The notes: generated by a model from the letters alone, not told the origin. A stretch of DNA of 36,857 bases from Sedimentisphaerales bacterium (GCA_035529405.1 DATKWV010000053.1:1-36857), one strand, 5' to 3'; positions 4,357 to 22,423 are shown, counted from the stretch's first letter. A program made the numbers and translations.

Positions 4357-4875
4357 TCAGGTAACCAGTGCAACAATTCCCGCACCGAGCAGTATCCAGA
4401 TGGGATTGACTTTATACTTAAACAGACAGACCATGCTTGCTGCTGCGATTAAAAGCGTTTTTATATCAATTATGGAGCTTCTTCCGATGCTGACCGCGGC
4501 ATCGAAGACCATACCGATAACCGCTATGCGCGCCCCTCGGAGGAAATTGGCGAGTATTTTATTTTCGCGGAATTTCCTGATGGCCTCCGTAGCCAGGCAT
4601 ATCATTATGAACGAAGGCGCAATTACGCTTAAGGTCGAAACAACCGCACCGAGGATGCCGCAGACCTTGTATCCTATGAATGTTGCCGAGATTATAACCG
4701 GCCCGGGGGTGACCTGCCCCAGCGTGATGGCATCAACGAATTCGGTTTTAGTCAGCCAGCCGTACCTTACAACCACTTCGTTTTCGACCATCGGAATAAT
4801 CACGATGCCGCCGCCGAAGCTGAACGCGCCGATTTTCAGAAATACCCACGCTAATCTGAGTAAATTGGTTATCAT
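4357..4875 (-). CDS. Chromate ion transporter (CHR) family protein, short single-domain form, second half of a pair
   Basis: Shows FSFGGGIVIIPMVENE and LGQVTPGPVI motifs. Its start overlaps the upstream stop (ATGA at 4872-4875). Confidence 0.8.
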   Translation of the reverse strand: MITNLLRLAWVFLKIGAFSFGGGIVIIPMVENEVVVRYGWLTKTEFVDAITLGQVTPGPVIISATFIGYKVCGILGAVVSTLSVIAPSFIMICLATEAIRKFRENKILANFLRGARIAVIGMVFDAAVSIGRSSIIDIKTLLIAAASMVCLFKYKVNPIWILLGAGIVALVT

Positions 4876-5660
4876 TTCAGGTTTTCTTTGGCGGCATCTT
4901 TGTGGTAAACAACGATGCCTGCGATTCCGGCAAGAGACACTATTATCACTATATCGAGCTTAAAGATTAACGACGACGCGAAGGCCCAGATTAAAACACA
5001 CAGTTCACGATAACCCTTCATTTCCGCTTTAGTCAGTCTCATGCCCACAGATATAATCAAACCGGTCACCGCAGCGCCCAGACACTTGAATACTTCCTCA
5101 ACTTTCGGCGTTATCCGGTACCTGTCATAAAGCATCGCAAGGATAATCATTAAAACAAATGAAGGCAGGATGAACACGACGGTGGAAATTATCGCGCCGG
5201 ACCATTTTTTCAGTTTATAGCCGGTGTACGTAACGATGTCCATTGTCACCGGTCCGGGCAGCACATCACCCAGCACCGCACCTTCGAGAAAATCTTCGTT
5301 GGTGAGAATCTGTCTTCGCCGCACAAGCTCATCTTCCAGCAGTGTAAACACAGCCATCGGACCGCCGAAACCGAAGCAGCCTATTTTCAGGAACATAGTC
5401 CAGTCATTAAATCTTTCGACAAGACCGGGTTTGGGCTGCTTTCGCTGCTGGGTCAGCATGTATTTTTTCTTATAAAAACCGGCCAGCAGCTTTTCAAGTT
5501 CTCTGGCTTTGCTTTCATCGCCGATTTCACGATACAATTCGTAGGCCTGCTGCCAGAGTTCGGCTACAAGTTTCAGGCTCTGTGTATCGGCACAGCGAGC
5601 AAAGACGTGCAGCCCTCGCATATACAGTTGTTCAGCCTGCTGTTTTACCTGTTCATCCAT
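4872..5660 (-). CDS. CHR family protein, first half of the pair, with a ~75-aa helical N-terminal extension
   Basis: Shows FGFGGPMAVFTLLEDE and LGDVLPGPVT motifs. The N-terminus (AEQLYMRGL...WQQAYELYREIGDESKARELEKLL) looks like a genuine helical hairpin. An alternative internal start at 5459 cannot be excluded. Confidence 0.7.
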   Translation of the reverse strand: MDEQVKQQAEQLYMRGLHVFARCADTQSLKLVAELWQQAYELYREIGDESKARELEKLLAGFYKKKYMLTQQRKQPKPGLVERFNDWTMFLKIGCFGFGGPMAVFTLLEDELVRRRQILTNEDFLEGAVLGDVLPGPVTMDIVTYTGYKLKKWSGAIISTVVFILPSFVLMIILAMLYDRYRITPKVEEVFKCLGAAVTGLIISVGMRLTKAEMKGYRELCVLIWAFASSLIFKLDIVIIVSLAGIAGIVVYHKDAAKENLK

Positions 5661-5713: not shown

Positions 5714-6343
5714 CTAAGGTATGGTTACGCCTTCCATCTCGCCTTCGCCGATTCTGATGGTGGATTTTATTTTTTGGCCGTTTCTGATTATGTTTATTTT
5801 TACATCGGACTCGGGTCTTGCGCGGGCAACGATGGATTTAAAGTGTTTGAGGTTTTTGACTTTGTGGCCGTTGAACCGCTGGATACTGTCTCCGATTTGC
5901 AGGCCTGCCCTTTGGGCCCTGCCGCCGGCATATACCGCGTGCACAATTACGCTTGACTTGCCCTGCAGGGCCGCCGCTTCCAGAGCCAGGGGCTTGATTA
6001 AGACCTGCTTAACGGGAATACCTGCTGCCTGGGCCTTGCCCCAGTTGGCGCTGTAAAGCGGACAATCACGAATGTTGCACGTTCCCCGGCTGTCTAAGAA
6101 CCCCGGGCAGTATGGACAGCGGGTCAAAGCAACGCTCTGGATGCGGATACTTTCCGACACTGCCGGCTGTGTTGCAAAATCAACAGCATCGCCGGCAGAG
6201 AAGCTGGCTATTGCATACACAACGGAAATAACAATGACAATCGCCAGAATCCAGAGCTGGTTCTGTGTGTTTTCGAGGAAACAATCCCCGGGTAATGTCT
6301 CCTGGCGAACATCAGGGTGATTTTTGTTATGTCTGTGGTACAT
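5714..6343 (-). CDS. Membrane-anchored PDZ-domain protein with a four-Cys cluster. It sits in the MamP position but has no CXXCH.
   Basis: One TM (LWILAIVIVISVVYAIA), then CPYCPG-x9-CNIRDCP, then a PDZ domain (VIVHAVYAGGRAQRAGLQIGDSIQRFNGHKV...). The track ORF begins with TTG at 6373; the ATG at 6343 is preferred. Both overlap the upstream gene end. Confidence 0.7.
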   Translation of the reverse strand: MYHRHNKNHPDVRQETLPGDCFLENTQNQLWILAIVIVISVVYAIASFSAGDAVDFATQPAVSESIRIQSVALTRCPYCPGFLDSRGTCNIRDCPLYSANWGKAQAAGIPVKQVLIKPLALEAAALQGKSSVIVHAVYAGGRAQRAGLQIGDSIQRFNGHKVKNLKHFKSIVARARPESDVKINIIRNGQKIKSTIRIGEGEMEGVTIP

Positions 6344-7262
6344 AGGTCCGCGTTTGAACACTTTCTGCGGCAACGGTTTTTTTACGGCGGCCTGCAGCCG
6401 GCAGCAGCTGTACGGAGATTTGAGAAATATTTTTCATCTTTGTGTGCAAAACATTTTTAATTTCGCCGACTGTCTGCAGGGCGGTGCTCAAAGGCCAGTG
6501 ACGCGGCACCGACACGCTCATATCCACCAGCAGGCTTCGGCCGGCAAATCTCGCTGTGACGCGCTCGATACCGCCGACGCCATCGATATTGTCCATAAGG
6601 TCGCGTATGTGCGCCTCTTCTACCCGCAGAGACACGTCCATAAGCCCTTTTACAGCTTTCTTGATACCGTCGAAAGCCACCTTTATAATCAGAACGCAAA
6701 TGACAATCGACACAATATGGTCGAGCCTGGCCAGGCCTAAATTACTTCCCACTACCGCAACGATTACGGCCACAGAAGTACCGACATCCGCGCGGCTGAC
6801 CTGGGCGTTGGCCAGAATTGCCGCACTTGACAGTTTCTGGCCCGCACACCGGCCGTACTTGAATGCCATCTGATTGGCAATAATTGATATAACGGCAGCG
6901 AAAATGGCAATCAGTCTCGGGGGCCTTTCGGGCCCGACTATCATCATCTCGGCAAAAGCAAAAAACATATAAGCCACAGCCACAACCATAAGCAGCATGT
7001 TCACAACACCCGAAGCCAGAAACTCCACCTTGCCGTAACCGTAAGGAAATTTTTCGTCTGCGGCCCTTGAGGCCATTTTGAGACTGACCAGCACCGCGGC
7101 AGTAATGATAAAATTGGCCAGAGACTGAAAAGCATCCGTATGCAGAGACCTGCTGTTACTGAGAATCGCAAAGGAAAACTTCAGAAAAAAAAGGGCCAGA
7201 TTTATGGCCAGAATCGTCCATTCGACCCTTTTGCCGCACCGGATACAACGCTGAGAAATCAT
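6327..7262 (-). CDS. Cation diffusion facilitator (CDF) paralogue, MamB/MamM-like, with a non-canonical metal site
   Basis: Has an N-terminal CIRCGK, the EKFPYGYGKVEF motif, six TMs and a C-terminal cytoplasmic domain. The positions that carry the transport-site residues in the other two CDF copies read SLHTDAF and AQVSRAD here. Confidence 0.8.
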   Translation of the reverse strand: MISQRCIRCGKRVEWTILAINLALFFLKFSFAILSNSRSLHTDAFQSLANFIITAAVLVSLKMASRAADEKFPYGYGKVEFLASGVVNMLLMVVAVAYMFFAFAEMMIVGPERPPRLIAIFAAVISIIANQMAFKYGRCAGQKLSSAAILANAQVSRADVGTSVAVIVAVVGSNLGLARLDHIVSIVICVLIIKVAFDGIKKAVKGLMDVSLRVEEAHIRDLMDNIDGVGGIERVTARFAGRSLLVDMSVSVPRHWPLSTALQTVGEIKNVLHTKMKNISQISVQLLPAAGRRKKTVAAESVQTRTYVPQT

Positions 7263-7265
7263 ATC

Positions 7266-8144
7266 TTACTCGCAAATAACATTAACACTGCCGAGGTGTT
7301 CAACTCTGTCGGCGACGGCGTTCTGGATTCGCGTTGATATTGTGCTCACCTGGGCGATAGTCCTTTCCGGCGGCAGACAAACATACAAATCCACCCAGAC
7401 GGTTCTGCCGATTTGTCTTGTTTTTACGGCCTTTATCTGCCTGACCTCTGGTATGCCGGCCAGGGCCTGCCTTATCAAGCGCACGTCACTATCGATGATG
7501 GCGCCGTCAATAAGTCCGGTGCTGCCCTGATAAAATATTTCAATACTCAGGAAAATCAAATGCCCCGCCTCGAATACCGCCACCAGCGCATCGAGAAAAA
7601 GGTATCCCATCATACTGCCCAGCGTGGCAACAACCACCGCCAGCGAAGCGATAACATCGGCACGATGGTGCTTGCCGTGGGCAAGCAGGGCGGGACTGTT
7701 TATATGCTTGTGGGCACAGATATTGAATCGGTAGATTAGTTCGTTGGCCAAAACAGAAATAGCCGCTGCAACCAGCGTGGCCCAGTGCGGCCGGGCGTGT
7801 TCGCCCAGGAAAATAATCCGCACGCAGTCGGCAAGAATAAAAATTGTAGCGCCGAGGATAAGTATGCTGGTGAACACACAGACGATGTATTCGGCGTTGC
7901 CGTGGCCGTATGGATGTTCTTCGTCGGGCGGTCTTGACGCTATTTTCAAACCCACCAGCACTGCAACGCCGGAAAGTACGTCATGAAACGAATAAAGGGC
8001 GCTTGCAATTAATGCGCGGCTGCCGGTGAAGATACCGACAGCGCCCTTGAAAATCATCAGAAGAAAACTGTCCCACAGCCCAATCCATGAAAGCTGTGTT
8101 GCACAGCGGGCACATTTTTGTTTTTCAGACACGTCTTTGCTCAT
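7266..8144 (-). CDS. mamM: CDF transporter, MamM-like
   Basis: CARCAT, ALYSFHDV, EHPYGHGNAEY and GKHHRADVIAS closely resemble remembered Magnetospirillum MamM motifs (CTVCSR, AMYSLKDM, AKHHHGDATAS). The track start is GTG at 8165; the ATG at 8144 is preferred. Confidence 0.75.
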   Translation of the reverse strand: MSKDVSEKQKCARCATQLSWIGLWDSFLLMIFKGAVGIFTGSRALIASALYSFHDVLSGVAVLVGLKIASRPPDEEHPYGHGNAEYIVCVFTSILILGATIFILADCVRIIFLGEHARPHWATLVAAAISVLANELIYRFNICAHKHINSPALLAHGKHHRADVIASLAVVVATLGSMMGYLFLDALVAVFEAGHLIFLSIEIFYQGSTGLIDGAIIDSDVRLIRQALAGIPEVRQIKAVKTRQIGRTVWVDLYVCLPPERTIAQVSTISTRIQNAVADRVEHLGSVNVICE

Positions 8145-8284
8145 TAAAGTGTTCCAAAGAATCACGGATTAATTAAAGTATGGAAGCCTGCCTGAGTTCG
8201 GAAGGCGACAAAAACCCGTCCCCCGCTGAGATTATGATATACTAAAAAGGCTTGGGCATTATTGTGCGATAATTGTCGCGGTCT

Positions 8285-8543: not shown

Positions 8544-9686
8544 TCAACTATGGCACGGAACTTTCGGCTTAACCAGAAGCTGCCAGAAATGCCGGGGCAT
8601 TCGCTGTGCCATTTTAAGCGCTCCGTTTGCGCCGGCAAAGACCGGCTCTTCGGCACATGTTACCCTGCCGCCGCCAAGCTCGTTCATCCCCTGCTCGATG
8701 AGGGTCTTTAGACCTGTCATTTGACTTCCGCCGCCGGCCAGTATCACATTGCTGCGGATGCCCTCCTGAAATTCAGGGTCATAGGTGGCAATCAGGCGCC
8801 CTATCGAGTTGATGATACCGGGCACAATACTTCTGCAGGCTGTTCGCAGCTCGCCGGTTATGTCGAAATCCTTCGGTCTGCCCTGCACCGGAAAGCGCGC
8901 CATAACGCGGTCGGCGTTATCCGAAACGAAACCATACCGTTCTTTCAGGGCCCTGACCATGTTGATATTGAATTGGGCGCTGGGATATTTTCTGCGAATA
9001 AGCTCCGACAGTTTTTCATCGACAAAATCACCGGCCTGGTCGAGGGTAATCTGGTCCTGGGCTTCGGGCAAGGTACCGTGCAGGCGGCAGAGGTCAACCG
9101 TTCCGGCGCCGATGTCGATAATCAGCGCGCGGTCGAGGATACCCAGGCCGTAAGCAACGGAAAACGGTTCGGAAACAATCATAACCGCGTCGAGTATTCC
9201 TCTGGCGGCCTCGATAAGAACGCGTTTGCTTGAAATGCTGGCCCGTGCCGGCGCCCCGATTACGCCATAGACAGGCTGGTCGGGCCTGCAGTTTGTCCGC
9301 TGCAGCAGATGACGGACCAGCTGCTGGGCGGCAACAAGGTTTTTGTTCTGCCCGGCCCTGCCGTCATTTCTTATTACGCCGTGTTCCAGCGGCCGCACAA
9401 GCTCCAGTGACAGCCGGTGCTTCAGTGCCAGGTCGCCGAACAAGGGCTCGGCACCGAGCAGCTCCTCGGAGATATTGTCTTTGGGATAGCCGACATAAGT
9501 AGGCACTACTTCGCGCACCCCGTTGCTGGCGGCTATGGATGCCCGCGACGTACCCAGGTCGATACCCACGAAGACCGCTTCATCGCCGGCGGCAAACGCG
9601 CCGAAAGTCTCGGACAACGGATACCCTTGGCTGATTTTTTCCGATGCCGGTTTGCTAACGTGTTTTTTAACCTGTTTTTTTGCCAT
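8544..9686 (-). CDS. mamK: Actin-like filament protein MamK
   Basis: GIDLGTS, VGYPKD, IGAPARAS, VSEPFSVAYGLG, DIGAGTVDLC, LAGGGS and a C-terminal P..FWQLL are collinear with remembered MamK motifs (GIDLGTS, VVGYPKD, IGVPARAS, VSEPFMVGYGL, DIGAGTTDIC, AGGGS, PPQYWRQL). Confidence 0.85.
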   Translation of the reverse strand: MAKKQVKKHVSKPASEKISQGYPLSETFGAFAAGDEAVFVGIDLGTSRASIAASNGVREVVPTYVGYPKDNISEELLGAEPLFGDLALKHRLSLELVRPLEHGVIRNDGRAGQNKNLVAAQQLVRHLLQRTNCRPDQPVYGVIGAPARASISSKRVLIEAARGILDAVMIVSEPFSVAYGLGILDRALIIDIGAGTVDLCRLHGTLPEAQDQITLDQAGDFVDEKLSELIRRKYPSAQFNINMVRALKERYGFVSDNADRVMARFPVQGRPKDFDITGELRTACRSIVPGIINSIGRLIATYDPEFQEGIRSNVILAGGGSQMTGLKTLIEQGMNELGGGRVTCAEEPVFAGANGALKMAQRMPRHFWQLLVKPKVPCHS

Positions 9687-11822: not shown

Positions 11823-14429
11823 TTACCACCGATATATAACGCTTATGTAAATACTGGATATAACCAGGAAAATCAGCATTATGGGCAGGCCCAGATGCGC
11901 AAACTCATGAAAAGTCAGCCTTGCAGGGACCTGGCTGTCATCTTCAGCCGCCGACAACGGCCGGCCCTGTTCCTTAACGAATTTATCGAACAGCGTGGCG
12001 GTGACACTGCCGGCCGTTGCGCCGACCAGCGTGCCGCTGGAGCCGGCGCAGACTCCCAGTGAAAGCGACCACCAGTAAATATTATGGGGAGCCGCGCTTT
12101 TAAGCGCCATCACCACCGGCAGAAACAAGGCCGTGGTCGGGCCGGCATTGAGAAAACAGGTCACCAGTGCCGCCGCCCACATCAGCAAAAGACACAGTAC
12201 CAGCAGATTTCCGAAAGACAGGTGCGCGATGATATCCGATATATAACCAAGAAGCCCCGCTGCCTCCGCGGCCCCCACGAGCACGAAAAGGCCGGAGAAA
12301 AACAAAACATCACGGATACTGACTTTCTCGAGAAGTCTGAACGGCTCACATTCGCTGGCCGCCAGGGCGATAACTCCGCCGGCAAGAGCGATGATAGCCG
12401 GCGAGCAGCTCAGATAATCGGAAATCAAAAAGCCCACAATAACAATGCCTAAAATAACAAGACCCCTGTTCAGTGCGCCGGGGTTTTTAATGGTTGTGGG
12501 CAATGAGTGCTTGAGATTAGTGAAAAACCGGTCTTGGTCGTCAGTGCTGTCACCGGCCAACCGGTCAAAATCCGGGTCCGGCACCCGGCAATTGTCATAC
12601 TCATCAGGCCCTGCGGCCTCTAAAGGCCGGCTGTTTACCCTGCTTTTGGAACTTTTGAACAGGGAAGGCTTTGCGATGCGCAGGTACACCAGAAGAACAA
12701 ACAATTCCAGCAGACAAATCGGAAGCATATACGAGGTAAACTGGTAGAATGGCACGCCCGCCTCGGCGCCTATAATCATGTTGGGAAAATCGCCGACCAT
12801 GGTCGAAGCGCCGCCGAGATTGGAGGCAATAACCATACTGATTAAAAAAGGCCTGGCGTCAAAATTGAGATATTTCGATAATTTCAGCACCATCGGCGCC
12901 ATCAGCATAATGGTTGTAAGATTGTTGACTACCAGCGAAAAACAATACGTCACAAGGCAGAAAAGCCACATTACCTTCCACTTGTCGCCGCCGGTGGCAA
13001 TGGTTATCCTTTTGGCAAGGTACTCGAGAGCGCCGGCCTCGTCCAGCACGCCGGTAACCAGCTGCATTCCGACAATAAAACAAAGTACATCCAGCTTGGT
13101 CAACAGTGCCGAGGCGATGCGGTCCTGGTCGTAAAATCCGACATGGTAGCCCATGACAGCTATAACTATCGCGCCCAGAACAAACAGCACCACCCGGTCA
13201 AGGATGTTTCTGTACACTAAATAATAAATAAGGGCAAAGATAAGCAGAACCAGTACCACCTCAGCCAGAGAACCGCTGCCGGGTAAAAAGTAAACGGCCT
13301 TGGCCGCGTGCACCGTAAGCTGTTTTTCACGTCCCTCTCGCAGCACGGTCAGCTTGATTTTTTTCGACTGACAAAGCTGCGGTGCGATTTTGTCAAAGAA
13401 GGCCCTGTCGGTTATTCTGTTGCCGTCGATGCTGACAATTACATCACCGCGTCTAAGCCCGGCATGTTCTGCGGGTGAATTGTTTTGTATATAGTTGACT
13501 ATTTCGCCGCGTCTTTGAGGTACTGTGCGCTGGGCAGCCACCACCGGATTGGCTGCCAGAAGCTCGGCGCCCAGCCACGTACATACAGGCTCGACAGGTC
13601 CCTGGCTCCATTGGGGGATGGGTAATGCTGAAAGGAAATTCTCCGCCTGGGCGGCACTGATTGCGTAGCTGAACGAAGCCGGCGCACCGGCCGGACGAAC
13701 AAAAGGCAGTGCCAGGGCGATTACATAGCCGTTTAAATCAACCAGCGGCCCGCCGGCGTTTTCAGCATCAAGGGATATATCCGTCTGGACCAAATCCCGA
13801 TACCTGGTTTTTTTGCCTGTGCGTGCGAGGTGTTCCTGCCCCGGGGCGTTCTCAACGACCAGCGTTTGACGTCTTTTGGTAATAGTGCCGGTTTTTGTCG
13901 TCAGCTCCCAGCCCGAAGGCGTTCTTTTGCCGCCTATGGCAACGATGCTGTCGCCTCTTTTAATGTGGGACAAATCCGCAAGTTGCGCAGGTTCGAATTC
14001 TTCAGTCCCTGCGGTATTACCGGCGCTTGCCTTAAGCAGCGTCAGGCTCGTCAGTTTGTCGCTGGTTATCACGCTGGCGTCGTACTTGTTATTTTTGTAG
14101 TCGATAACGTACAAAGACTGGATATCCGGTGTTAATGGTGCCGAGGTTAAGAGGAAACCGCCCCTATCGACAATCACCCCGCAGCCGATGACGCTTATGT
14201 GGGTGTCAATGCCCTGCTTCTTGACGGCCCACAGGCTCACCACGCTGGGACCGGCCTGTGCCAGGGCCGGTTCCGGATTACATACAAGTTGAGCCTCAGG
14301 CGGTTGAATCGACCGGGACCTGAACTGTTCCCACAACACCCACAGAACAATCAAAACGGCAAACAGCGACAGAACCGTTATCCACGATTTAATATATTTT
14401 GTCGCCATTGATTCCTTCAGGTTTCTCAT
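11823..14429 (-). CDS. mamO: MamO-like degenerate trypsin domain + PDZ + ArsB/NhaD/CitMHS-type (MamN-like) permease, fused in one 868-aa protein
   Basis: The HtrA-like fold is recognisable, but the catalytic positions read LLTSAPL (no His), SLTLLK (no Asp) and ENAGGPL (Ser to Ala). The PDZ has SPAEHAGLRRGDVIVSIDG. The C-terminal ~480 aa is polytopic, with SLVVNNLTTIMLMAP and ASNLGGASTMVGDFPN. Confidence 0.75.
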   Translation of the reverse strand: MRNLKESMATKYIKSWITVLSLFAVLIVLWVLWEQFRSRSIQPPEAQLVCNPEPALAQAGPSVVSLWAVKKQGIDTHISVIGCGVIVDRGGFLLTSAPLTPDIQSLYVIDYKNNKYDASVITSDKLTSLTLLKASAGNTAGTEEFEPAQLADLSHIKRGDSIVAIGGKRTPSGWELTTKTGTITKRRQTLVVENAPGQEHLARTGKKTRYRDLVQTDISLDAENAGGPLVDLNGYVIALALPFVRPAGAPASFSYAISAAQAENFLSALPIPQWSQGPVEPVCTWLGAELLAANPVVAAQRTVPQRRGEIVNYIQNNSPAEHAGLRRGDVIVSIDGNRITDRAFFDKIAPQLCQSKKIKLTVLREGREKQLTVHAAKAVYFLPGSGSLAEVVLVLLIFALIYYLVYRNILDRVVLFVLGAIVIAVMGYHVGFYDQDRIASALLTKLDVLCFIVGMQLVTGVLDEAGALEYLAKRITIATGGDKWKVMWLFCLVTYCFSLVVNNLTTIMLMAPMVLKLSKYLNFDARPFLISMVIASNLGGASTMVGDFPNMIIGAEAGVPFYQFTSYMLPICLLELFVLLVYLRIAKPSLFKSSKSRVNSRPLEAAGPDEYDNCRVPDPDFDRLAGDSTDDQDRFFTNLKHSLPTTIKNPGALNRGLVILGIVIVGFLISDYLSCSPAIIALAGGVIALAASECEPFRLLEKVSIRDVLFFSGLFVLVGAAEAAGLLGYISDIIAHLSFGNLLVLCLLLMWAAALVTCFLNAGPTTALFLPVVMALKSAAPHNIYWWSLSLGVCAGSSGTLVGATAGSVTATLFDKFVKEQGRPLSAAEDDSQVPARLTFHEFAHLGLPIMLIFLVISSIYISVIYRW

Positions 14430-14444
14430 CGACCCCTGCTGAGC

Positions 14445-15344
14445 TTACTTTTCCCGGGTTTCGGTATGAGATTTACAGGCGATTGTTATGTCTTCAAGGT
14501 GCTTTATCTGGTTGGTGAGTACGGTTCTTACCTCGCGGGCAATACTGTTGCTTTTCTCAACGGTGATTCTCGGGTTTACAAGAATCTGCAGGTCAGCCAG
14601 ATACTGCCGGCCCATGCCCCGCGTTTTCAGATAGCCGATACCCTTAACACCAGGTACAGCGGTTACCAGCTTTCTGATTCGGCTGACTTCTTTGGAATGC
14701 AGAGGTGCATCCATTAGTCCGTGCAGGTTCTTGCTGAGCAATTCGAATCCGACTTTACCCACGAGAAGACCGACCAGCAAGGCTGCCAGCGGGTCTAATG
14801 ACCGAAAGCCGAACTGTGCGCCGAGCACGCCGAAAAACACCGGTATGGAAGATAAACAGTCCGCGCGATTGTCCCAGGCCTCGGCTTCTATGGCTGCGCT
14901 GTTGACGCGCCTGCCGGCGCAAATGGCATATCGAAACATCATCTCATTGACCACGATGGATATTGCCGCGGCGGCTAATGCAATGAAGTGCGGCGTGGGG
15001 TGATGAACTCCGTTAAGCAGATGACCGCCTGATGAAACAACTATCCAGGCCGCCCCTGCCAGCAGGACTATCCCTATAAAAGCTCCAGAGATGAATTCGG
15101 TCTTGCCGTGACCGTAGGGGTGTGTTTTATCGGGGGGCTTTTTTCCCAGACGTATGGCAATAAGCGTTACTACCGAGTCCAGAACGTCGGCACCCGAATG
15201 TAAGGCATCGGCAAGCACAGCCAGACTGCCGCTGACAACGCCTATTACGGCCTTGAAGGCACACAAGAACACGTTGCCCCAAAGGCACACCCATATTGCC
15301 CTGTTAGCGCATTTTCTGCATTTTTCGTCGATTACTACTGCCAT
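14445..15344 (-). CDS. mamB: CDF transporter, MamB-like
   Basis: CRKCAN, ADALHSGADV, THPYGHGKTEF, VNEMMFRYAICAG, AWDNRADCLSS and HGLMDAP closely follow remembered MamB motifs (CRDCR, ADSLHSGADV, VNELMYRYQICVG, AWDNRSDAISS, HGLMDSS). Confidence 0.85.
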   Translation of the reverse strand: MAVVIDEKCRKCANRAIWVCLWGNVFLCAFKAVIGVVSGSLAVLADALHSGADVLDSVVTLIAIRLGKKPPDKTHPYGHGKTEFISGAFIGIVLLAGAAWIVVSSGGHLLNGVHHPTPHFIALAAAAISIVVNEMMFRYAICAGRRVNSAAIEAEAWDNRADCLSSIPVFFGVLGAQFGFRSLDPLAALLVGLLVGKVGFELLSKNLHGLMDAPLHSKEVSRIRKLVTAVPGVKGIGYLKTRGMGRQYLADLQILVNPRITVEKSNSIAREVRTVLTNQIKHLEDITIACKSHTETREK

Positions 15345-15392: not shown

Positions 15393-15599
15393 CTATTGCC
15401 GCACTATGTCCAGCAGAACTACCCTGGCTACATCAATATTCGCGACCACGGTCTTGAAAGCCCGAATATCGTTCACTTTCTGATTATTGACCTTCTTAAC
15501 CACATCTGCCGGCGCAATGCCGGCCTCCATTGCTCCATTTTTACCTGATAGTATGACAGGTAGCGCACCGGCCGCGGTAACGATGAGGGGCCGTTGCAT
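15393..15599 (-). CDS. Orphan partial PDZ-like ORF in the +1 frame relative to the end of the mamE-like gene. It may be a separate overlapping gene or a frameshifted MamE C-terminus.
   Basis: LPVILSGKNGAMEAGIAPADVVKKVNNQKVNDIRAFKTVVANIDVARVVLLDIVRQ aligns residue-for-residue in pattern with the PDZ of 5714..6343. It overlaps the upstream CDS by 59 nt. Confidence 0.4.
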   Translation of the reverse strand: MQRPLIVTAAGALPVILSGKNGAMEAGIAPADVVKKVNNQKVNDIRAFKTVVANIDVARVVLLDIVRQ

Positions 15600-17595
15600 T
15601 TTTTGTTATGACCGGCGCAGCAGCAAGTACGCCGCCGGCATTTGTGGGCACTACAGTATGACAGGTAATACACGGACCACGGTAACGATGAGGGGCCTTT
15701 GCGTCTTTTGTTATGGGCGGCGGATCAGGAAGTATGTCGCCGGCGTCTGTGGGAAGCTGGCCTCCGGTCGTCATGAAAATGTGGCAGTTAGTGCATGCAC
15801 GTCCCCGATTGCGATGTGGGCGCAGTGCACCCGGCTGGATCGGCTGGGCCGCCTCCATTTGAGCAAAGCCCAGCATATTGGCGTTCCGTGCCGTCATAAT
15901 AAATGTCATCTTCGTGCCCCGACGGCTGACTTGCACCTGTGCCTGCTTTCCTTCCTGCACCCGTTCACGCTGCGTAGCCTCGAAAAATGCTCTCAGGTCA
16001 GGTGTAGGAATACCCCCGATGGACTGGACCATATCCCCGGCCAGGATGCCGGACTCGGCGGATTCGAGCGTAACCTCGTCAACCAGCACGCCGGTTTCCC
16101 CCTTCGGAATCCGATATTCGGTGGCCAGTTCCGCAGTCAGCGGAATTACCTCCAAACCCAGCCAGTGCCCTTCGATAAAGTCCTTTCCTGCGGCGTTCTG
16201 CTCGCGGGGTGAGGGCAATGTTTCAGTCGGTGCCGTCGCCAGCGCAACGGTCTGAAGGGCCAGCGTGTTTCCTTGAGGCGCCTTGGGAAGCAGGCTGCGG
16301 ACGTTAGGCGGTTCCGGCCGAAGCGTACAAACCAAAGTTTTCTTACTGTTATTTCTGAAAAAAGTAAGCTCTGCCGTTTCACCGGCCTGCCTTCCATCCA
16401 GAAAAGACCAGAGCATTTTGTCGTTTCTGATGCGCTTGCGGTCAACTCGAAAGATTACGTCTCCTCTCATAAGGCCCGCCGCTGCCGCAGGAGAATTGAG
16501 AAAAACGCGGTTGACCAGCACACCATAATTAATGGGCAAATCGAACTCTCTGGCGACCACATCGTCCACGCCCCTGACGGCGATACCCAGCCAGCAGGGT
16601 CGTGAAGCAACAGTCCTTGCCATCATGCGCAGATTAGCCAAGGCCGGGACATTGAAGGCGTTGGTATTGCCCGCAGCACGTTGTATATTCCCCCCAGCCG
16701 CCGGTGACGGCACTATCTCTATAAAATCACCGAAAGCTGCTTTTGCCTGATTAACCGGCACTGCAAAACCGATACCGCTGAAAGATGTTGTCGGTGAATA
16801 AATAGCCGTATTGATACCGATAACCTGTCCCTGGGGATTGACCAGCGCGCCGCCGCTGGAACCGGGATTAATGGAAGCGTCGGTTTGAATCAGGCCTTTT
16901 ATGAGTTTGTCACCGGCTGTAAGTGTGCGGTCCGTATTGCTGATAATTCCTGCTGATGCGCTCTGCGACAAACCGAAAGGATTGCCTATTGCCACAACCT
17001 GCTGGCCAATAAATACCTTTTTGGAATCGCCCAGCGGCGCGGGTGTAAAAGTTTCTTTGGAAGCAGTGTTTACCTTTATAATCGCCAAATCCAGGTCCGG
17101 CCTGCTGTCGATAAGCTCAGCCGAATAGGATTTAATCAGCTGGTCATAACTGAAGGTAACAACGATATTCTCAGCCCCATTGACAACATGATAGTTGGTA
17201 AGGATATAGCCGAGATGATGTACAATGATACCGCTGGCGGTTTGTTCCATGGCCCCGGAGGTGTTAATACCCACCACAGCCGGCGAAACAATTCCGATGG
17301 CACGATTAAAGGACATTACCTGCGGCGTGGCACCGGTCACCGAATCCGGATTTTGTTTGCCGTACCAGGGCGGAACAAAGCTTGCTGTTCTGACATCAGC
17401 GTTTGCTGCCGATGGAACCGAGTTTCTTCGCAATGCGCTCCCAAAAGACATCGGTCCCCTGTTTCTTTGAGCCTGCCGTATGTCATCGGCATAGTAAAAT
17501 GCAAGCACGATTGTAGCGGCAATCAATACTCCTACCGCCGCAAGCCACGGCCCCAGCGTCTTTCGTGCACAAGTGTCGTTACCGTTATCAGCCAT
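15541..17595 (-). CDS. mamE: MamE-like HtrA serine protease: TM, active trypsin domain, two PDZ domains, three C-terminal magnetochrome (CXXCH) units
   Basis: The catalytic triad context is intact (LTNYHVV, DLAIIK, GSSGGAL). There are two PDZ-like segments. The C-terminus carries PHRNRGRACTNCH, PHRYRGPCITCH and PHRYRGRCATCH. Confidence 0.85.
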   Translation of the reverse strand: MADNGNDTCARKTLGPWLAAVGVLIAATIVLAFYYADDIRQAQRNRGPMSFGSALRRNSVPSAANADVRTASFVPPWYGKQNPDSVTGATPQVMSFNRAIGIVSPAVVGINTSGAMEQTASGIIVHHLGYILTNYHVVNGAENIVVTFSYDQLIKSYSAELIDSRPDLDLAIIKVNTASKETFTPAPLGDSKKVFIGQQVVAIGNPFGLSQSASAGIISNTDRTLTAGDKLIKGLIQTDASINPGSSGGALVNPQGQVIGINTAIYSPTTSFSGIGFAVPVNQAKAAFGDFIEIVPSPAAGGNIQRAAGNTNAFNVPALANLRMMARTVASRPCWLGIAVRGVDDVVAREFDLPINYGVLVNRVFLNSPAAAAGLMRGDVIFRVDRKRIRNDKMLWSFLDGRQAGETAELTFFRNNSKKTLVCTLRPEPPNVRSLLPKAPQGNTLALQTVALATAPTETLPSPREQNAAGKDFIEGHWLGLEVIPLTAELATEYRIPKGETGVLVDEVTLESAESGILAGDMVQSIGGIPTPDLRAFFEATQRERVQEGKQAQVQVSRRGTKMTFIMTARNANMLGFAQMEAAQPIQPGALRPHRNRGRACTNCHIFMTTGGQLPTDAGDILPDPPPITKDAKAPHRYRGPCITCHTVVPTNAGGVLAAAPVITKNATAPHRYRGRCATCHTIR
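15544..15753 (-). repeat. Tandem 105-nt (35-aa) duplication encoding magnetochrome units 2 and 3
   Basis: agtatgacaggta..ggtaacgatgaggggcc..ttttgttatg occurs at about 15551 and again at about 15656. Confidence 0.85.
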
Positions 17596-17611
17596 CCTTT
17601 ACACCTGCAAC

Positions 17612-20116
17612 CTAAGCTTTTATCCTCAGATTAAAGCGTTGTCCCTGGCGATAAACATTCAAAGATATATCTCTTTGCGGGTCTGTTTTATTCATGACCT
17701 TTATGAAATCGACGATTGTTTCGACCGGCTGGTTGCCGATTGCATTGATTACATCTCCTGCCAACAGCCCGGCAGCAGCAGCCTGGCCGGCACTTTCGGT
17801 AATAACAACCCCTTTTTCTCCTTCCGGAATATTGTAAGTCAATGCCAATACGGGCGATAATGCCTCCACCCCCATTCCCAGCACCTCAACTTCATCGGCT
17901 CCCACCTCTCCGCCGGCCAGCACACCCGACAATCCCGGCGGCTGGACATTCTGAGGATTGAACGGCTCGAAAGGCTGTGTGCCCAGTGCCAGTGCCTGTG
18001 CCTGAATTGCTGCCATACCCTGTGCTGCGGGGCCTTCGGTTTCCGGAAGGAAAAGGTCCCAGCCGGCCCCTTGTAAGCCAAACGGCCTGGCAATCAGCAC
18101 CGGTGAAATGCTTATGGTCTTGCCGTCTCGATAAATGGTCAGCTTCATTTGCTGGCCTGGTTTTTTCTTCACGAGCACCCCTTCAAGCATCGCACCATCC
18201 CTGATTGCGCGACCGTCGGCACGGATTATCACATCGCCTCTCTGCAGCCCGGCTATCCTGCACGGCGAATTACCGAAAACTTCCATCACAAGCGCCCCTC
18301 GCGCCATAGGCAGGCCCACAAAAGTTTTAATTTGCCTGTCAACCGCCCTGACCCGTATGCCAAGCCACGGTCCATCCTGCTGACCGGCCGCCTGACGGAA
18401 TTGTCCTGCCGGCGGACACCACGGATAAAGCCCCAGGCCCCGTCGCATTGCCTGACTTTCAGGACCAGCGGCTTGTTGCATCCAGCTTTGCGGCGGACAC
18501 CAGGGATTTAATCCAAGGCCCGGCTGCGCAGGGAGGTTCCCCGTATTAACGCCGCCCTGCAGCCCGCCTACCGGCGGACACCAGGGGTATAAACCTTTGC
18601 CTTTCTGTACGGAACCGCCCAACTGGTTACGGGCCCAATTCGGAGCACCGCGCAAAACTTCGGTCACATTGCTCGGGGCGGTTTCTATAAACTCGGGAAA
18701 CGCTGCTTTGGCAGGGTCAATCGGGCTGGCAAAACCGATACCGCTGAATGCCTGTGTCGGCGAATAAATTGCCGTGTTCAGCCCTATGACCTCACCATTG
18801 ACGTTCACAAGCGGCCCGCCGCTTGAGCCGGGATTGATGGGCGCATCGGTCTGGATAAAGTTCGTGAAGGTCTTGTTACCGACAGCGAGCGTGCGCTGGG
18901 TGTTGCTGATAATCCCGAACGTTACACTTTGCTGCAGGCCGTAGGGACTGCCGACGGCCAATACCTCATCCCCGACAGATACGGCACTGCTGTTGCCGAT
19001 TAGTGCAGGGCTGAACTGCTCGTTGCCTTTGGAAAGTATCTTCAGTATGGCGAAATCAAGCTCGGGGGCCTCGTCAATCAATTGGGCCGGATAAGTCTTC
19101 GTTACCTGCCCAACGCTGAGCGTAACGGTGATATCCCTGGCGCCGTGTACGACGTGATGATTAGTCAGAACATAGCCGTTGCGATTTACAATCACTCCGG
19201 AACCGCCCCTGCCAAGTGCCTGAAACTGCTTGTCATTCTGCGGCGGCAAACCGGGCGCATTGGCGATTGTCTGCCAGCCGGGAAGACACGCCCCGGGCAC
19301 ATTGGCCATTGTCTGCCAGCCGCCCGGCGGACAAACCCAGGGTGCGCCTTGCCTCATCATCTGCGTGCCGCAGCTCGGGCAGCCGAGAGTATAGGCTGGA
19401 ACGCCGGCTCGATGAGGCATACTGGTGCCGCAATTGGGACATAGCAGAAATCCGCCGGAGCCCATTCCCCAGCCGCCGTTCCGTTGGCCCCAGACATACT
19501 GTGCAGAACCTGCCGCTTCCGGCGACTGGTCTGCGGGCTGGTTTTGGCCGGCCATCGGCTGGCCGGCACCGGGTACAGGATAAGGTCCCGGCGCACCTTC
19601 GCGCATCATTTGCGTTCCGCAGTTCGGGCAATTGACGGTGTAGGCGGGGACAGCTCTTTGATGAGGTACCCTTGTGCCGCAATTTGGGCAGGCCAGGTAG
19701 CCGCCGGGGCCCATTCCCCAGCCGCCCATCCTGCCTGCACCGGCTGCAGGCTGCGCCTGCACAGCAGGGCCGCCCTGACTTATAAAACTGCTGCCTACGT
19801 TGACACTTACCACCGAAGGCGCAATTTTGGCAACGATGTTTTTGTACGACATCTGTTGCGAAAAGGCGACCGGCTGGCCCTGAAAGGCAGCCTGTAATTG
19901 CTGCTGGGCGCCAAAGCCCCACTCTTCGAGAACGCCGGCCTGGAGTTCGGCCTGGGCCTGACGAAGATTTCGCTGGCTCTGGCGGTCCCAGTAAACAACC
20001 GCAACTATAACCAGGATGATTAACGTTATTAATACTGTCAGCAGGTTCCTGTTGCTGCCTGGGCCGCTTTGTGAGTTATCCACTGTCGACTCATCGCCTT
20101 TGGTTTTCTCTTCCAT
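17612..20116 (-). CDS. Second HtrA-family serine protease (MamE paralogue without magnetochrome). It carries a duplicated zinc-ribbon insert, Cys-Pro repeats and two PDZ domains.
   Basis: LTNHHVV, DFAILK and GSSGGPL are intact. The track start is GTG at 20122; the ATG at 20116 has AAGGTGG about 7 nt upstream. Confidence 0.85.
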   Translation of the reverse strand: MEEKTKGDESTVDNSQSGPGSNRNLLTVLITLIILVIVAVVYWDRQSQRNLRQAQAELQAGVLEEWGFGAQQQLQAAFQGQPVAFSQQMSYKNIVAKIAPSVVSVNVGSSFISQGGPAVQAQPAAGAGRMGGWGMGPGGYLACPNCGTRVPHQRAVPAYTVNCPNCGTQMMREGAPGPYPVPGAGQPMAGQNQPADQSPEAAGSAQYVWGQRNGGWGMGSGGFLLCPNCGTSMPHRAGVPAYTLGCPSCGTQMMRQGAPWVCPPGGWQTMANVPGACLPGWQTIANAPGLPPQNDKQFQALGRGGSGVIVNRNGYVLTNHHVVHGARDITVTLSVGQVTKTYPAQLIDEAPELDFAILKILSKGNEQFSPALIGNSSAVSVGDEVLAVGSPYGLQQSVTFGIISNTQRTLAVGNKTFTNFIQTDAPINPGSSGGPLVNVNGEVIGLNTAIYSPTQAFSGIGFASPIDPAKAAFPEFIETAPSNVTEVLRGAPNWARNQLGGSVQKGKGLYPWCPPVGGLQGGVNTGNLPAQPGLGLNPWCPPQSWMQQAAGPESQAMRRGLGLYPWCPPAGQFRQAAGQQDGPWLGIRVRAVDRQIKTFVGLPMARGALVMEVFGNSPCRIAGLQRGDVIIRADGRAIRDGAMLEGVLVKKKPGQQMKLTIYRDGKTISISPVLIARPFGLQGAGWDLFLPETEGPAAQGMAAIQAQALALGTQPFEPFNPQNVQPPGLSGVLAGGEVGADEVEVLGMGVEALSPVLALTYNIPEGEKGVVITESAGQAAAAGLLAGDVINAIGNQPVETIVDFIKVMNKTDPQRDISLNVYRQGQRFNLRIKA
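18407..18601 (-). repeat. Three G-L-(Y/N)-P-W-C-P-P repeats between the trypsin domain and PDZ1
   Basis: The copies read KGKGLYPWCPP, GLGLNPWCPP and RGLGLYPWCPP. A fourth, related PWVCPP lies at 19325-19342. Confidence 0.85.
19337..19726 (-). repeat. Two copies of a ~45-aa unit, GGWGMGxGG(Y/F)LxCPNCGT-x17-CPxCGTQMMRxGAP, inside the protease gene
   Basis: Both copies were read directly from the translation. They lie between the first trypsin strand (APSVVSVNVG) and GSGVIVNRNGYVLTNHH. Confidence 0.85.
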
Positions 20117-20283
20117 ATCCACACCACCTTTCGACTTGGGGTCGATTTGTCAATTGCCGGTTTCGAACACCTTCAGGAAATTGCAAATCCTGACGGACCG
20201 CCGCGCCCGAACCGGCACATAGTCCACCGCCGGCCGGCCCTTTCAAAATCAGCTTTGCAATTATCCCGGGCAATCATTTTCAG

Positions 20284-20764: not shown

Positions 20765-20956
20765 TCATTTTTCTTTTGCGGATGCTTTCTCTTTGCCCAT
20801 TCTTCTTAAAGCAACGGCTATAGCCAGAGCCCCGCCGAGCACAAGAATCAGGGCAATCAGCCCCTCAATTATCTCGATAATAAACCACCGGCAATACACC
20901 ATCGCCAGAATTCCAAGCCCCATCGCGATTGCTCCAATTATTCCCAATCTCATCAT
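20765..20956 (-). CDS. mamI: MamI-like small two-TM protein, copy 2
   Basis: It is a paralogue of 20284..20469 (MMRLGIIGAIAMGLGILAMVYCRWFIIEIIEGLIALILVLGGALAIAVALRR). Its start overlaps the mamQ-like stop (ATGA). Confidence 0.55.
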   Translation of the reverse strand: MMRLGIIGAIAMGLGILAMVYCRWFIIEIIEGLIALILVLGGALAIAVALRRMGKEKASAKEK

Positions 20957-21741
20957 TTTGCTCCTTCAGTTTTGTCGGCATTGCCGGCGCCGACCTGCGG
21001 CTGCTGGTTGACACTGGCGCCCTGCCGGCTTATGTTCAGGTCGATGACAGGAACTTCCACATTCTCTGTCAGGCCTATGTACTCGATAGCATTATGGCGA
21101 TAAATAAATGCGAACACGTTTCCGGGAAATATTGTTATGTATTGATTATATATTTCACCGGCCTTGTTATACTTTTCCTTGGCGTTGGCGATTCGGTTCT
21201 CGGTGTTGGCCGCTTCCTTTATCAAATCCTGCACGGATTGTGTAGCCTTAAGGTCGGGATACTGCTCGGCCAATGCCACCAACTTCGACAATGTATGTTC
21301 CAGTACGTTGCCCGTGCTGACACCGGCGGTCTGGGAACTTCGGAGCATCTTCAGGGTTTCTCTTGCGTCTGAGACGTATTTGAACACCTCCTGCTCGTAT
21401 GCAGCGTATTTGCTTACAAGCGAGACCACGTTGGGAATCAGGTTCTGCCTTCTCTGCAGTTCGAAGTCCACGTCGGCTCGCCGGGCCCATGCAACGGTTC
21501 GCCATGAATTAAGGCGGTTGTACTGGAAAACCGCTTCGGCAATAACTACCAGCACCGCCAGAGCAATGACGATTCTTACGCACCACATCGCTGTGCGCCG
21601 ACTGCCGAGGGCTTTTTTGATATTCCTGATTTTGTCCTGTTTTGGACCGGCTGTTTTGCTCGCCGTACCCGTACAGCCGGCAGCGGCAGGCTTGAGTTCC
21701 TCTGCGTACAGCCTTTTTACAACGTTGCCAATCCGACTCAT
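20953..21741 (-). CDS. mamQ: LemA-family membrane protein, MamQ-like
   Basis: One TM is followed by a LemA core (RRQNLIPNVVSLVSKYAAYEQEVF...LAEQYPDLKATQSVQDL...ENRIANAKEKYNKAGEIYNQYITIFPGNVFA). GGGAAGG lies 6 nt upstream of the ATG. Confidence 0.8.
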   Translation of the reverse strand: MSRIGNVVKRLYAEELKPAAAGCTGTASKTAGPKQDKIRNIKKALGSRRTAMWCVRIVIALAVLVVIAEAVFQYNRLNSWRTVAWARRADVDFELQRRQNLIPNVVSLVSKYAAYEQEVFKYVSDARETLKMLRSSQTAGVSTGNVLEHTLSKLVALAEQYPDLKATQSVQDLIKEAANTENRIANAKEKYNKAGEIYNQYITIFPGNVFAFIYRHNAIEYIGLTENVEVPVIDLNISRQGASVNQQPQVGAGNADKTEGAK

Positions 21742-21811: not shown

Positions 21812-22423
21812 TTAAACGGCCGCTTCTTCGGCCTCGACGGCCTTTTTGAACGCCTCTACAGCTTTTTCGTGCTCGCCCTGCCCGTCGTAAATCAGGCCCA
21901 GACGGTAGTGGTATTTGTCCACAGCGGGTGCTAATTTTATGGCCTTGCTGATTGACTCGATAGCCGGCTTGTGGTCGCCTTTCTTATCCAGAACCACACC
22001 GAGCGTGTAATGAAAATCAGCGCGTTCAGGCTCAAGCTTCACCGCCTTCCTGTACGAGTCAACAGCACTGGCCAGTGCACCGGTCCTGTCATATAGCGCA
22101 CCGAGCCTGTAGTGAGTACTCGAGCGGTCCGGGTCGAGTTTCAGTACCTTCTGGAAGCAGGCGATTGCTTCTTCGTCCAGTCGTTTACCCATGTAGGCCG
22201 CGCCCAACTGGTACTGGATTTCAGCGTCGTCGCCGTTAAGAGCCAGGGCCTTCTGACACAATGAGACGGCCTGGTCGTAATCACCTCTGTTGATACAGCC
22301 TTTGGCCCTGTCGCGATAGACCTGCACCAGCTCTGTGGAATCGAGTCGAAAAGCCCTCTCGAGCTTGTCGAGGTATAAACCCAGAACATGGCCAAAACCA
22401 CGGAATGAGAACTTTTCCAACAT
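21812..22423 (-). CDS. mamA: TPR-repeat protein, MamA-like; first gene of the cluster
   Basis: The 203-aa product has about 5 consecutive TPR units (e.g. AIACFQKVLKLDPDRSSTHYRLGALY, AVDSYRKAVKLEPERADFHYTLGVVL, AIESISKAIKLAPAVDKYHYRLGLIY). GGGAGG lies 8 nt upstream of the ATG. Confidence 0.75.
   Translation of the reverse strand: MLEKFSFRGFGHVLGLYLDKLERAFRLDSTELVQVYRDRAKGCINRGDYDQAVSLCQKALALNGDDAEIQYQLGAAYMGKRLDEEAIACFQKVLKLDPDRSSTHYRLGALYDRTGALASAVDSYRKAVKLEPERADFHYTLGVVLDKKGDHKPAIESISKAIKLAPAVDKYHYRLGLIYDGQGEHEKAVEAFKKAVEAEEAAV

Follow-up and report, generated by a model that had tools for sequence, protein, structure and literature searches.

What does a protease that has lost its catalytic residues do when it is joined to an ion transporter? 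This question is raised by a gene in a 36,857-nucleotide stretch of DNA from Sedimentisphaerales bacterium (GCA_035529405.1, DATKWV010000053.1:1-36857; the whole of this stretch is referred to as the window), which is part of a magnetosome gene cluster and encodes a protein of 868 amino acids. In this protein, a 387-residue N-terminal extension comprising a signal anchor, a dead HtrA-type protease domain and a PDZ domain precedes a permease of the MamN type. We consider it fairly probable that the protein is an ion permease of the MamN lineage residing in the magnetosome membrane, and that its lumenal part, a dead protease derived from MamE/HtrA proteins together with the PDZ domain, acts non-catalytically.

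The fused protein and its inactivated protease domain

A first-pass annotation, made from the sequence alone, had read the gene as a fusion of a pseudoprotease, a PDZ domain and a permease. The open reading frame (ORF), which starts with ATG, has exactly the bounds given there, and Pfam assigns Trypsin_2 (residues 82-239, E 3.6e-11), PDZ_2 (residues 302-373, E 7.6e-14) and CitMHS (residues 417-792, E 1.1e-56) within this single ORF. An AlphaFold2 model based on an alignment of 78 sequences reached a mean predicted local distance difference test score (pLDDT) of 66.9, with values of about 80-90 for the protease and PDZ parts and of 40-75 for the permease. The top matches obtained with Foldseek against the PDB were all HtrA proteases with PDZ domains (DegP, DegQ, AlgW, DegS, HhoA; probability 1.0), and among the 50 matches listed there were HtrA proteins only, MamO structures being absent. 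At the start of the PDZ domain a WLGA loop is kept, which in the translations is the counterpart of WLGI in both neighbouring HtrA proteins; the domain further contains the conserved segment SPAEHAGL(R/K)RGDVI, and in the family W285, G324 and D329 are invariant and L286, G287, S318 and P319 nearly so.

As a rule, mamN stands alone in Proteobacteria and the protease genes are separate from it, and one might thus suspect that a frameshift or an assembly error has joined a protease gene to a separate mamN. However, gene calls on five independent contigs each yield the identical 868-residue protein from one gene, and the identical ORF comes from at least four independent samples; the neighbouring genes are the same on the four contigs examined (ENA ERZ27256828, Logan SRR8554643, JGI 3300031565 and 3300031566). 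A search of 5.8 billion proteins revealed about 90 clusters combining Trypsin_2, PDZ and CitMHS at 50-68% identity. The same domain order is found in approximately 75 full-length homologues (50-68% identity), the linker between the PDZ domain and the following helix is short and conserved (W375, Y380, G386), and the fusion was seen in eight or more species-level genomes. An artefact, which the first-pass annotation had named as a caveat, is therefore practically out of the question: the join is real, and across genomes the domain combination represents a conserved gene and not a one-off.

In databases these proteins bear generic names ('SLC13 family permease', 'PDZ domain-containing protein', 'NhaD/arsenite permease-like / S1-C serine protease'). 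The closest relatives of the Sedimentisphaerales protein are encoded in metagenome-assembled genomes (MAGs) of Phycisphaerae/Planctomycetota and in one MAG labelled Desulfobacterales. When the N-terminal 385 residues were compared by HMMER with 1.84 billion representative sequences (50% clustering), one full-length representative was recovered, along with short sequences of 134-302 amino acids, which are probably fragments, and one protein of the Riflebacteria type. Beyond these, matches dropped to ordinary HtrA proteases at about 33% identity, which indicates that the dead module lacks close free-standing relatives. Pseudoproteases in magnetosome clusters (PMC4794232), MamN itself and glimpses of module-bearing MamN are already known; for Elusimicrobiota, a preprint mentions a 'MamN' with magnetochrome domains (10.1101/2022.07.08.499144). 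A description of a dead-protease/PDZ/MamN protein, or of the modular pattern reported below, was not found in a search of the full-text literature and some supplements whose reach excluded figure labels and key subscription papers; within this scope, the opinion of the first-pass annotation that the architecture had not been described holds.

A phmmer search of PDB chains matched the protease domain to DegP, HhoA and DegS (E 5e-27 to 1e-11) and aligned LLTSAPL with ILTNAHV, SLTLLK with DLAVVK and ENAGGPL with GNSGGPL of Synechocystis HhoA. In a MAFFT alignment with the two intact HtrA proteins of the window, Pro98 takes the position of the catalytic His, Ser128 that of the Asp and Ala225 that of the Ser nucleophile, and Glu223 replaces the first Gly of the GNSGG motif. 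The three altered motifs reported earlier are thus present and align with the motifs of the neighbouring HtrA proteins as had been stated, with Pro, Ser and Ala found where His, Asp and Ser would be expected. This is not limited to the protein of the window. In 85 homologues carrying the domain, the triad columns contain the catalytic His in 0/85, the Asp in 0/85 and the Ser in 3/85 cases; the His column is occupied by T, P, I, S, A and other residues, the Asp column is dominated by Q, R and K but also contains S and G, and the most frequent triads are T-Q-A, T-R-A and T-K-A. In a comparison set consisting of generic Do proteases from the homologue list and the two HtrA proteins of the window, H-D-S is kept in 22 of the 23 HtrA-domain sequences. 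Loss of the triad is a property of the family and not a chance feature of one sequence. At the same time, E223 and N224 are conserved in at least 90% of the family, and the mean pairwise identity of the dead domain and PDZ (63%) lies between those of the cytoplasmic loop (41%) and the permease (76-82%). The dead module is thus still conserved in sequence and is constrained by something other than catalysis.

Might the domain still be an active peptidase that employs non-canonical residues? Its fold is intact according to AlphaFold2 and Foldseek, and three family members have a Ser at the nucleophile position. Yet His and Asp occur in no member, the residues at both columns vary freely, the first Gly of the GNSGG loop is replaced by Glu, and the columns of the cleft do not contain an alternative conserved set of His, Ser, Cys or Asp; we thus regard residual peptidase activity as very improbable. 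Compared with HtrA, DegP and DegS (peptidase S1C), the protein has the fold and the domain order, a trypsin-fold protease followed by a PDZ domain, in common, and its N-terminal anchor suggests that it is also exported; it differs in that the triad and the GNSGG loop are absent and in that the module is covalently joined to a transporter.

Kinship with MamE, MamO and MamN

The first-pass annotation had termed the protease part MamO-like. As an analogy this is appropriate: in MamO, too, a degenerate trypsin-fold domain lies N-terminal to a polytopic transporter in the magnetosome membrane, and a non-Gly residue starts the oxyanion loop. A closer kinship, in contrast, is not supported. Among the protease-type magnetosome models of NCBIfam, the N-terminal part fits best to MamE (NF040960) with 112 bits, compared with 33.7 bits for MamO (NF040961), although it stays below the cutoff of 800 bits set for both models; regarding membership in MamE, neither the triad nor a magnetochrome match (Pfam) was found. 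BLASTP with the protease part resulted in E-values of 3e-23 for the neighbouring MamE, 6e-21 for Magnetospirillum MamE and 1e-3 for MamO. In trees of protease domains, which were calculated by neighbour joining and contain long branches, grouping with the MamO clade was observed in 0/100 bootstrap trees. The fused dead domains form a long-branch group of their own; Planctomycetota and Riflebacteria are united in 68% of the bootstrap replicates, a value that falls to 19% once forms labelled 'Clostridia' are added.

A di-His metal site as in MamO, which had also been suggested, is missing. The columns of MamO H148 and H263 are occupied by Thr127 and Phe264 in the protein of the window and by T/G/R and F/I/L in eight family members. 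In nine proteins encoded adjacent to mamN, H is present at position 148 in eight and at position 263 in seven; D is found at the latter position in Magnetovibrio, as already noted in the original paper (PMC4794232), and in L050, from Nitrospinota, the two positions are N and V. The proteobacterial MamO sequences used here were recovered from loci in which mamO follows mamN. Taken together, model scores, BLASTP, alignment columns and the absence of bootstrap support rule out orthology with MamO as well as the di-His site. There are further differences: MamO carries TauE, which is absent here; in the fetched MamO loci the catalytic His is kept, the Asp nearly always, and the third position is T, N or S, whereas all three are lost here; and a PDZ domain is not part of MamO as published (protease plus TauE). 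In Proteobacteria, mamO is located directly downstream of mamN, and two adjacent genes of Magnetospirillum, mamN for a bare permease and mamO for a pseudoprotease plus TauE transporter, encode the analogous parts separately. The degenerate active site shared with MamO is no evidence of common descent, and the inactivation observed here is likely independent of the three described by Hershey et al.

Degenerate MamE paralogues, referred to as MamEO or 'MamE2', have been reported for Delta- and Gammaproteobacteria (PMC4794232; PMC9840458). These are also HtrA domains of the MamE clade that lost the triad after duplication and are found beside active paralogues, but they are free-standing and not fused to a permease, and neighbour joining places each of them with the active HtrA proteins of its own lineage, apart from the fused family. 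Two loci on Desulfamplus MAGs (L017, about 4504-5466; L037, 5331-6293) encode a free-standing HtrA-domain protein of 320 amino acids with a Q-D-D triad beside an intact HtrA, which would correspond to the published MamEO type; both loci also carry PDZ-only MamN fusions after mamB.

For the permease part, the MamN model of NCBIfam (NF040989) is the top match, with 326.9 bits (E 1.7e-97) over residues 392-866 and model positions 4-436 of 437, whereas no more than 30-40 bits are obtained with the ArsB, NhaD and DASS models. The MamN model, which was built on proteobacterial sequences, has a curated equivalog cutoff of 500 bits, and this is not reached. By BLASTP, the permease is 34% identical to MamN of Magnetovibrio blakemorei MV-1 over the whole length (E 7e-83); for MamN of Magnetococcales, Magnetospirillum and Terasakiella the identity amounts to 31-35%, and all four of these proteobacterial proteins align end to end. 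The earlier assignment to the MamN family is thereby confirmed; the C-terminal part is of the CitMHS/MamN type, and neither Pfam nor NCBIfam gave a TauE match. With MamN the protein shares the whole MamN model, the Pfam CitMHS domain, the NLGGASTMVGDFPN and NAGP motifs and the location in a magnetosome gene cluster. MamN, however, is a bare permease of about 437 amino acids encoded between mamM and mamO, whereas here a signal anchor, a dead protease and a PDZ domain are added in front and the gene is found after mamB.

The permease consists of two repeats, which are parted by a poorly conserved, K/R-rich loop at residues 592-648. Its sole solved relative by sequence is VcINDY (E 1e-8, HMMER alignment to 5ul7/4f35). 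The two-repeat layout is shared with VcINDY/DASS and the wider ion-transporter superfamily (ArsB, NhaD, CitMHS, OCA2/P protein), and the hairpin-tip and broken-helix motifs of VcINDY can be aligned with the permease, the broken helix with ASNLGGASTMVGDFPN. VcINDY is nevertheless a distant relative: its SNT motifs are represented by NNL and, in a weakly aligned stretch (Table 1), by NAG, and its first helix is apparently missing.

Possible functions of the dead module

Any function proposed for the module depends on the side of the membrane on which it is located. The N-terminal helix (residues 16-33) is preceded by a K/R-rich tail (in the family, K+R 1.9 versus D+E 0.1), which suggests that the anchor is oriented N-in and that the following approximately 350 residues lie outside the cytoplasm, in the magnetosome lumen or the periplasm. 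For the permease, charge counts in the family (positive-inside) and the weak alignment with VcINDY point to five crossings, a hairpin and another five crossings, with the K/R-rich start of the central loop in the cytoplasm and both ends in the lumen; this would correspond to the elevator-type layout of VcINDY without its first helix.

Under the reading that we prefer, a MamN-lineage permease with a non-catalytic lumenal module, the N-in signal anchor would export the protease-PDZ module, and the permease would move a small ion, a proton or an anion and thereby set the chemistry of the lumen, as proposed for MamN. The dead protease/PDZ module would bind but not cut, in the role of a scaffold or of a sensor connected with the MamE network of proteases. 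The module might dock to the pair of active HtrA/MamE proteases whose genes lie just upstream, or it might sense their products, which makes these two intact paralogues (15541-20122) candidate partners; alternatively, it might bind a C-terminal peptide. In this way, MamN transport would be coupled to a proteolytic checkpoint of organelle maturation. In AMB-1, MamN acts as a negative regulator and MamE, MamO and MamM act as positive regulators of one checkpoint of membrane growth and protein sorting; MamN is needed for magnetite formation, and it regulates membrane growth and Mms6 and MamD sorting (PMC8833152; 10.1101/2024.01.08.574735). MamO, in turn, activates MamE non-catalytically and needs its transporter domain to do so (PMC4794232). 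Both the checkpoint genetics and this mode of activation support a mechanism based on binding and not on cutting.

Two other functions are conceivable. With MamO there is a precedent, in the same organelle, for a degenerate protease that has been repurposed for metal binding (PMC4794232), and the dead protease might accordingly be a scaffold of the MamO type which binds iron or another transition metal in the lumen and nucleates the mineral, while the permease serves only as an anchor. Potential ligands would be the near-invariant Cys83 and Cys353 and a number of near-invariant Asp and Glu residues (D88, D110, D124, D217, E175, E223, E289); the cluster type is predicted to make the iron sulfide greigite (PMC7449369), for which Cys ligands would be plausible. 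However, the domain is unrelated to MamO beyond the shared fold, the ligand positions of MamO are altered in the protein of the window and throughout the family members compared, no His is conserved anywhere in the module, and the Cys residues are not kept in the divergent forms labelled 'Clostridia', so that we regard a metal scaffold as unlikely.

The other possibility concerns the C-terminus. All nine protease+PDZ forms (from eight loci and the window) end in IY(R/H)W or LYRW, even at only 39% identity to the protein of the window, whereas the exact motif is present in none of about 65 other MamN forms (bare, PDZ-only or with magnetochrome domains); in the family, 62/78 C-termini read [IL]YRW and 75/78 end in Trp. 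Provided that it lies in the lumen, the tail could serve as a ligand of the PDZ domain. It is known that outer-membrane-protein tails ending in Y-x-F activate DegS. The PDZ domain might thus bind its own lumenal tail (...IYRW-COOH), in cis or across a dimer, and gate the permease, or the tail might activate the PDZ domains of neighbouring MamE-type proteins. The strict co-occurrence of the tail with the dead-protease+PDZ architecture, the WLG loop kept in the PDZ domain and a predicted topology that puts the C-terminus on the PDZ side would be in line with such a mechanism. On the other hand, the last helix reaches residue 867 in the model, leaving little free tail for the PDZ groove, the topology is itself a prediction, and Tyr-Arg-Trp at the membrane boundary may be an aromatic-belt or snorkelling motif inherited in one clade. 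On balance, a role of the tail as a PDZ ligand, be it for gating or for activation, seems improbable to us.

The reading of the protein as a MamN-lineage permease with a dead, binding module in the lumen also has to face several objections. The family is known from sequence alone and its organisms are uncultured. HtrA proteases are trimeric, whereas members of the transporter superfamily are typically dimeric. The permease model is of low confidence (below a pLDDT of 50 at residues 377-446), and the topology thus rests on the charge counts and the weak alignment; the protease trees combine long branches with modest neighbour-joining support (68% and 19%, see above). Finally, the PDZ domain is missing in two Riflebacteria forms, and both modules are missing in two Elusimicrobiota relatives, which indicates that the module is dispensable in some lineages.

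The magnetosome gene cluster and MamN in other phyla

A magnetosome gene cluster occupies the minus strand of the window between about 22.4 kb and 1.6 kb (Table 1). The order MamA-MamQ-HtrA-MamE-MamB-fused MamN-...-MamK-MamM-CDF-PDZ-ChrA-FeoB-DtxR (CDF, cation diffusion facilitator) recurs in Planctomycetota/Phycisphaerae (L003-L007). In the window, small membrane proteins are encoded between the fused gene and MamK, and a PDZ protein, a split chromate-transporter (ChrA) pair, FeoB and DtxR/FeoA follow the third CDF gene. The gene for MamB is also a neighbour of the fused gene's orthologue in L001-L007, L025 and L081-L084, and other mam genes were detected at 74 of the 80 loci with a MamN-type permease. 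The fused gene is a conserved core gene of Planctomycetota-type magnetosome clusters.

Table 1. Features of the fused gene and of the surrounding magnetosome gene cluster (positions in the window; residues refer to the 868-residue protein)
Feature	Position	Strand	Evidence or remark
Whole gene, 868-residue fusion (signal anchor, dead HtrA protease, PDZ, MamN-type permease)	11823..14429, stop codon included	minus	ORF list, Pfam, NCBIfam, five contigs
N-terminal signal-anchor helix, residues 16-33 (WITVLSLFAVLIVLWVLW)	14331..14384	minus	hydropathy, AlphaFold2 helix 2-37, family charge counts
Dead HtrA/trypsin-fold domain, residues 55-275	13605..14267	minus	Pfam Trypsin_2, PDB phmmer, Foldseek, pLDDT
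PDZ domain, residues 283-378	13296..13583	minus	Pfam PDZ_2/PDZ_6/PDZ, family invariants, pLDDT about 85
MamN-type permease (CitMHS / ion-transporter superfamily), residues 388-868	11826..13268	minus	Pfam CitMHS, NCBIfam MamN, BLASTP, VcINDY alignment
Pro98, catalytic His position	14136..14138	minus	alignments
Thr127-Ser128 (Ser128, catalytic Asp position; Thr127, position of MamO metal ligand H148)	14046..14051	minus	alignments
Glu223-Asn224-Ala225, replacing Gly-Asn-Ser of the oxyanion-hole/nucleophile loop	13755..13763	minus	alignments
Asn502-Asn503-Leu504, invariant, over first Ser-Asn-Thr hairpin-tip motif of VcINDY	12918..12926	minus	HMMER alignment
Asn761-Ala762-Gly763, invariant, over second Ser-Asn-Thr motif of VcINDY	12141..12149	minus	weakly aligned stretch, score -0.1, not significant alone
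C-terminal Tyr-Arg-Trp-COOH	11826..11834	minus	tail specific to dead-protease+PDZ MamN forms
MamA	21812-22423	minus	cluster gene
MamQ	20953-21741	minus	cluster gene
Two tandem paralogues, 61 and 63 amino acids	20284-20469, 20765-20956	minus	between HtrA and MamQ
Intact HtrA with zinc ribbons	17612-20122	minus	Pfam, NCBIfam, HDS triad
MamE, intact, three magnetochrome motifs	15541-17595	minus	Pfam, NCBIfam, HDS triad
mamB (CDF transporter), directly upstream, 15 bases from the start codon of the fused gene	14445..15344	minus	NCBIfam MamB, 294 bits
MamK	8544-9686	minus	cluster gene
MamM	7266-8165	minus	cluster gene
Split chromate-transporter (ChrA) pair	4357-5660	minus	inside the magnetosome cluster

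Some of the neighbouring genes show features of their own. Each of the two small tandem paralogues contains two hydrophobic helices (MxMRLGIIGA...GGALAIAVA.RR), and judged by their sequences these proteins look MamI-like. The HtrA encoded at 17612-20122, which has orthologues in L003-L007, contains a pair of N-terminal double zinc-ribbon units (CPNCG...CPNCG and CPNCG...CPSCG), and the stretch that links its protease to the first PDZ domain includes three 'LYPWCPP'/'LNPWCPP' repeats; to our knowledge, these Cys-Pro-Pro repeats do not correspond to a described motif. Three CDF paralogues are encoded on the minus strand (14445-15344 and within 6327-8165), one MamB-like, one MamM-like and a third which scores equally on both models and is conserved in L003, L005, L007 and L009. 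The ChrA pair is 64-80% identical in Planctomycetota and 'Clostridia'-labelled clusters, a value above that of most Mam proteins. The cluster ORFs scanned include no TauE gene, and the ChrA pair may, as an anion transporter, fill a comparable slot.

In order to place the fusion among other MamN proteins, genomes were scanned with one genome per species, and matches were dissected with domain hidden Markov models and Pfam. A dead protease plus a PDZ domain on MamN is found in Planctomycetota/Phycisphaerae, in the MAG labelled Desulfobacterales and in two MAGs labelled 'Clostridia', and a dead protease only in Riflebacteria. In an Elusimicrobiota single amplified genome (L013, 8972-11761, 929 amino acids) and a Fibrobacteria MAG (L020, 289-3243, 984 amino acids), MamN is preceded by magnetochrome motifs, two or three in number, and a PDZ domain, which amounts to a MamP/MamE-C-terminal module joined to MamN. 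PDZ-only forms occur in Desulfamplus, other Desulfobacterales and Omnitrophota, and bare MamN of about 437-445 amino acids in Proteobacteria, Magnetococcales and Nitrospinota. All three types of module, dead protease, PDZ and magnetochrome, are building blocks of MamE, and outside the Proteobacteria it is usual for a MamN permease to bear such a MamE-like module. At eight further loci (L041, L044, L046, L050, L054, L058, L076, L080; Alpha- and Gammaproteobacteria and one Nitrospinota), query residues from about 36-81 up to 862-867 were matched, but these apparent fusions were rejected: they consist of mamN and a separate mamO, whose matches are merged by the scan.

The permease tree shows the bare proteobacterial MamN proteins on one side, and all module-bearing forms together with a few bare forms from other phyla on the other. 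The dead-protease forms are found together, with two Elusimicrobiota sequences nested among them. As these two permeases are without detectable modules, strict monophyly of the fused permeases has to be rejected (0/100 bootstraps, calculated by a distance method); a single origin of the fusion followed by later loss is likely. The labels of some of the MAGs deserve caution. The two 'Clostridia bacterium' MAGs (L009, WJOT01000131.1; L010, CAYFRM010000092.1) contain a full cluster with two copies of MamA, MamQ, a MamE-like protein, MamB, MamM, the ChrA pair and the fused MamN; Firmicutes are not among the listed magnetotactic phyla (e.g. 10.1101/2022.03.28.486042), and the label may be a binning or taxonomy error. 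In 'Desulfobacterales bacterium CR_Bin_073' (JABXJX01; L001 and L008), the fused gene nests inside Phycisphaerae in the permease tree, and a MamB fragment is 88% identical to the MamB of the window, which points to mis-binning or recent transfer.

In its widest interpretation, the fusion could be read as a 'Rosetta stone', indicating that all magnetotactic bacteria couple MamN-type transport mechanically, and on the lumenal side, with the HtrA (MamE/MamO) machinery. To gate the permease, the module would then either dock to oligomers of the MamE type or recognise a signal at a C-terminus, perhaps the conserved ...YRW tail of the protein itself. Among magnetosome clusters, the family would be the fourth case in which a pseudoprotease arose independently, and a covalent union of MamE modules and MamN would be the common state outside the Proteobacteria, of which the bare MamN and the adjacent MamO of Magnetospirillum would be the split version. 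We put this forward as a speculative generalization that has some, but a rather small, chance of being correct.

In model species, MamN, MamO and MamE are all needed to start a crystal, and no physical contact between MamE and MamO has been found (PMC4794232; PMC8833152; 10.1101/2024.01.08.574735). The existence of a natural protein consisting of a MamE-derived dead protease, a PDZ domain and MamN predicts that transporter and HtrA scaffold work together in the lumen as a single unit, a prediction that can be tested in Magnetospirillum. In addition, the family extends the idea that pseudoproteases arose convergently in magnetotactic bacteria to clusters outside the Proteobacteria. There, 'MamN' is a modular protein, which matters for the annotation of metagenomic magnetosome clusters, where such proteins now appear under generic labels, and the fusion found in the Sedimentisphaerales cluster hints at a physical link between ion transport and the protease checkpoint of magnetosome formation.

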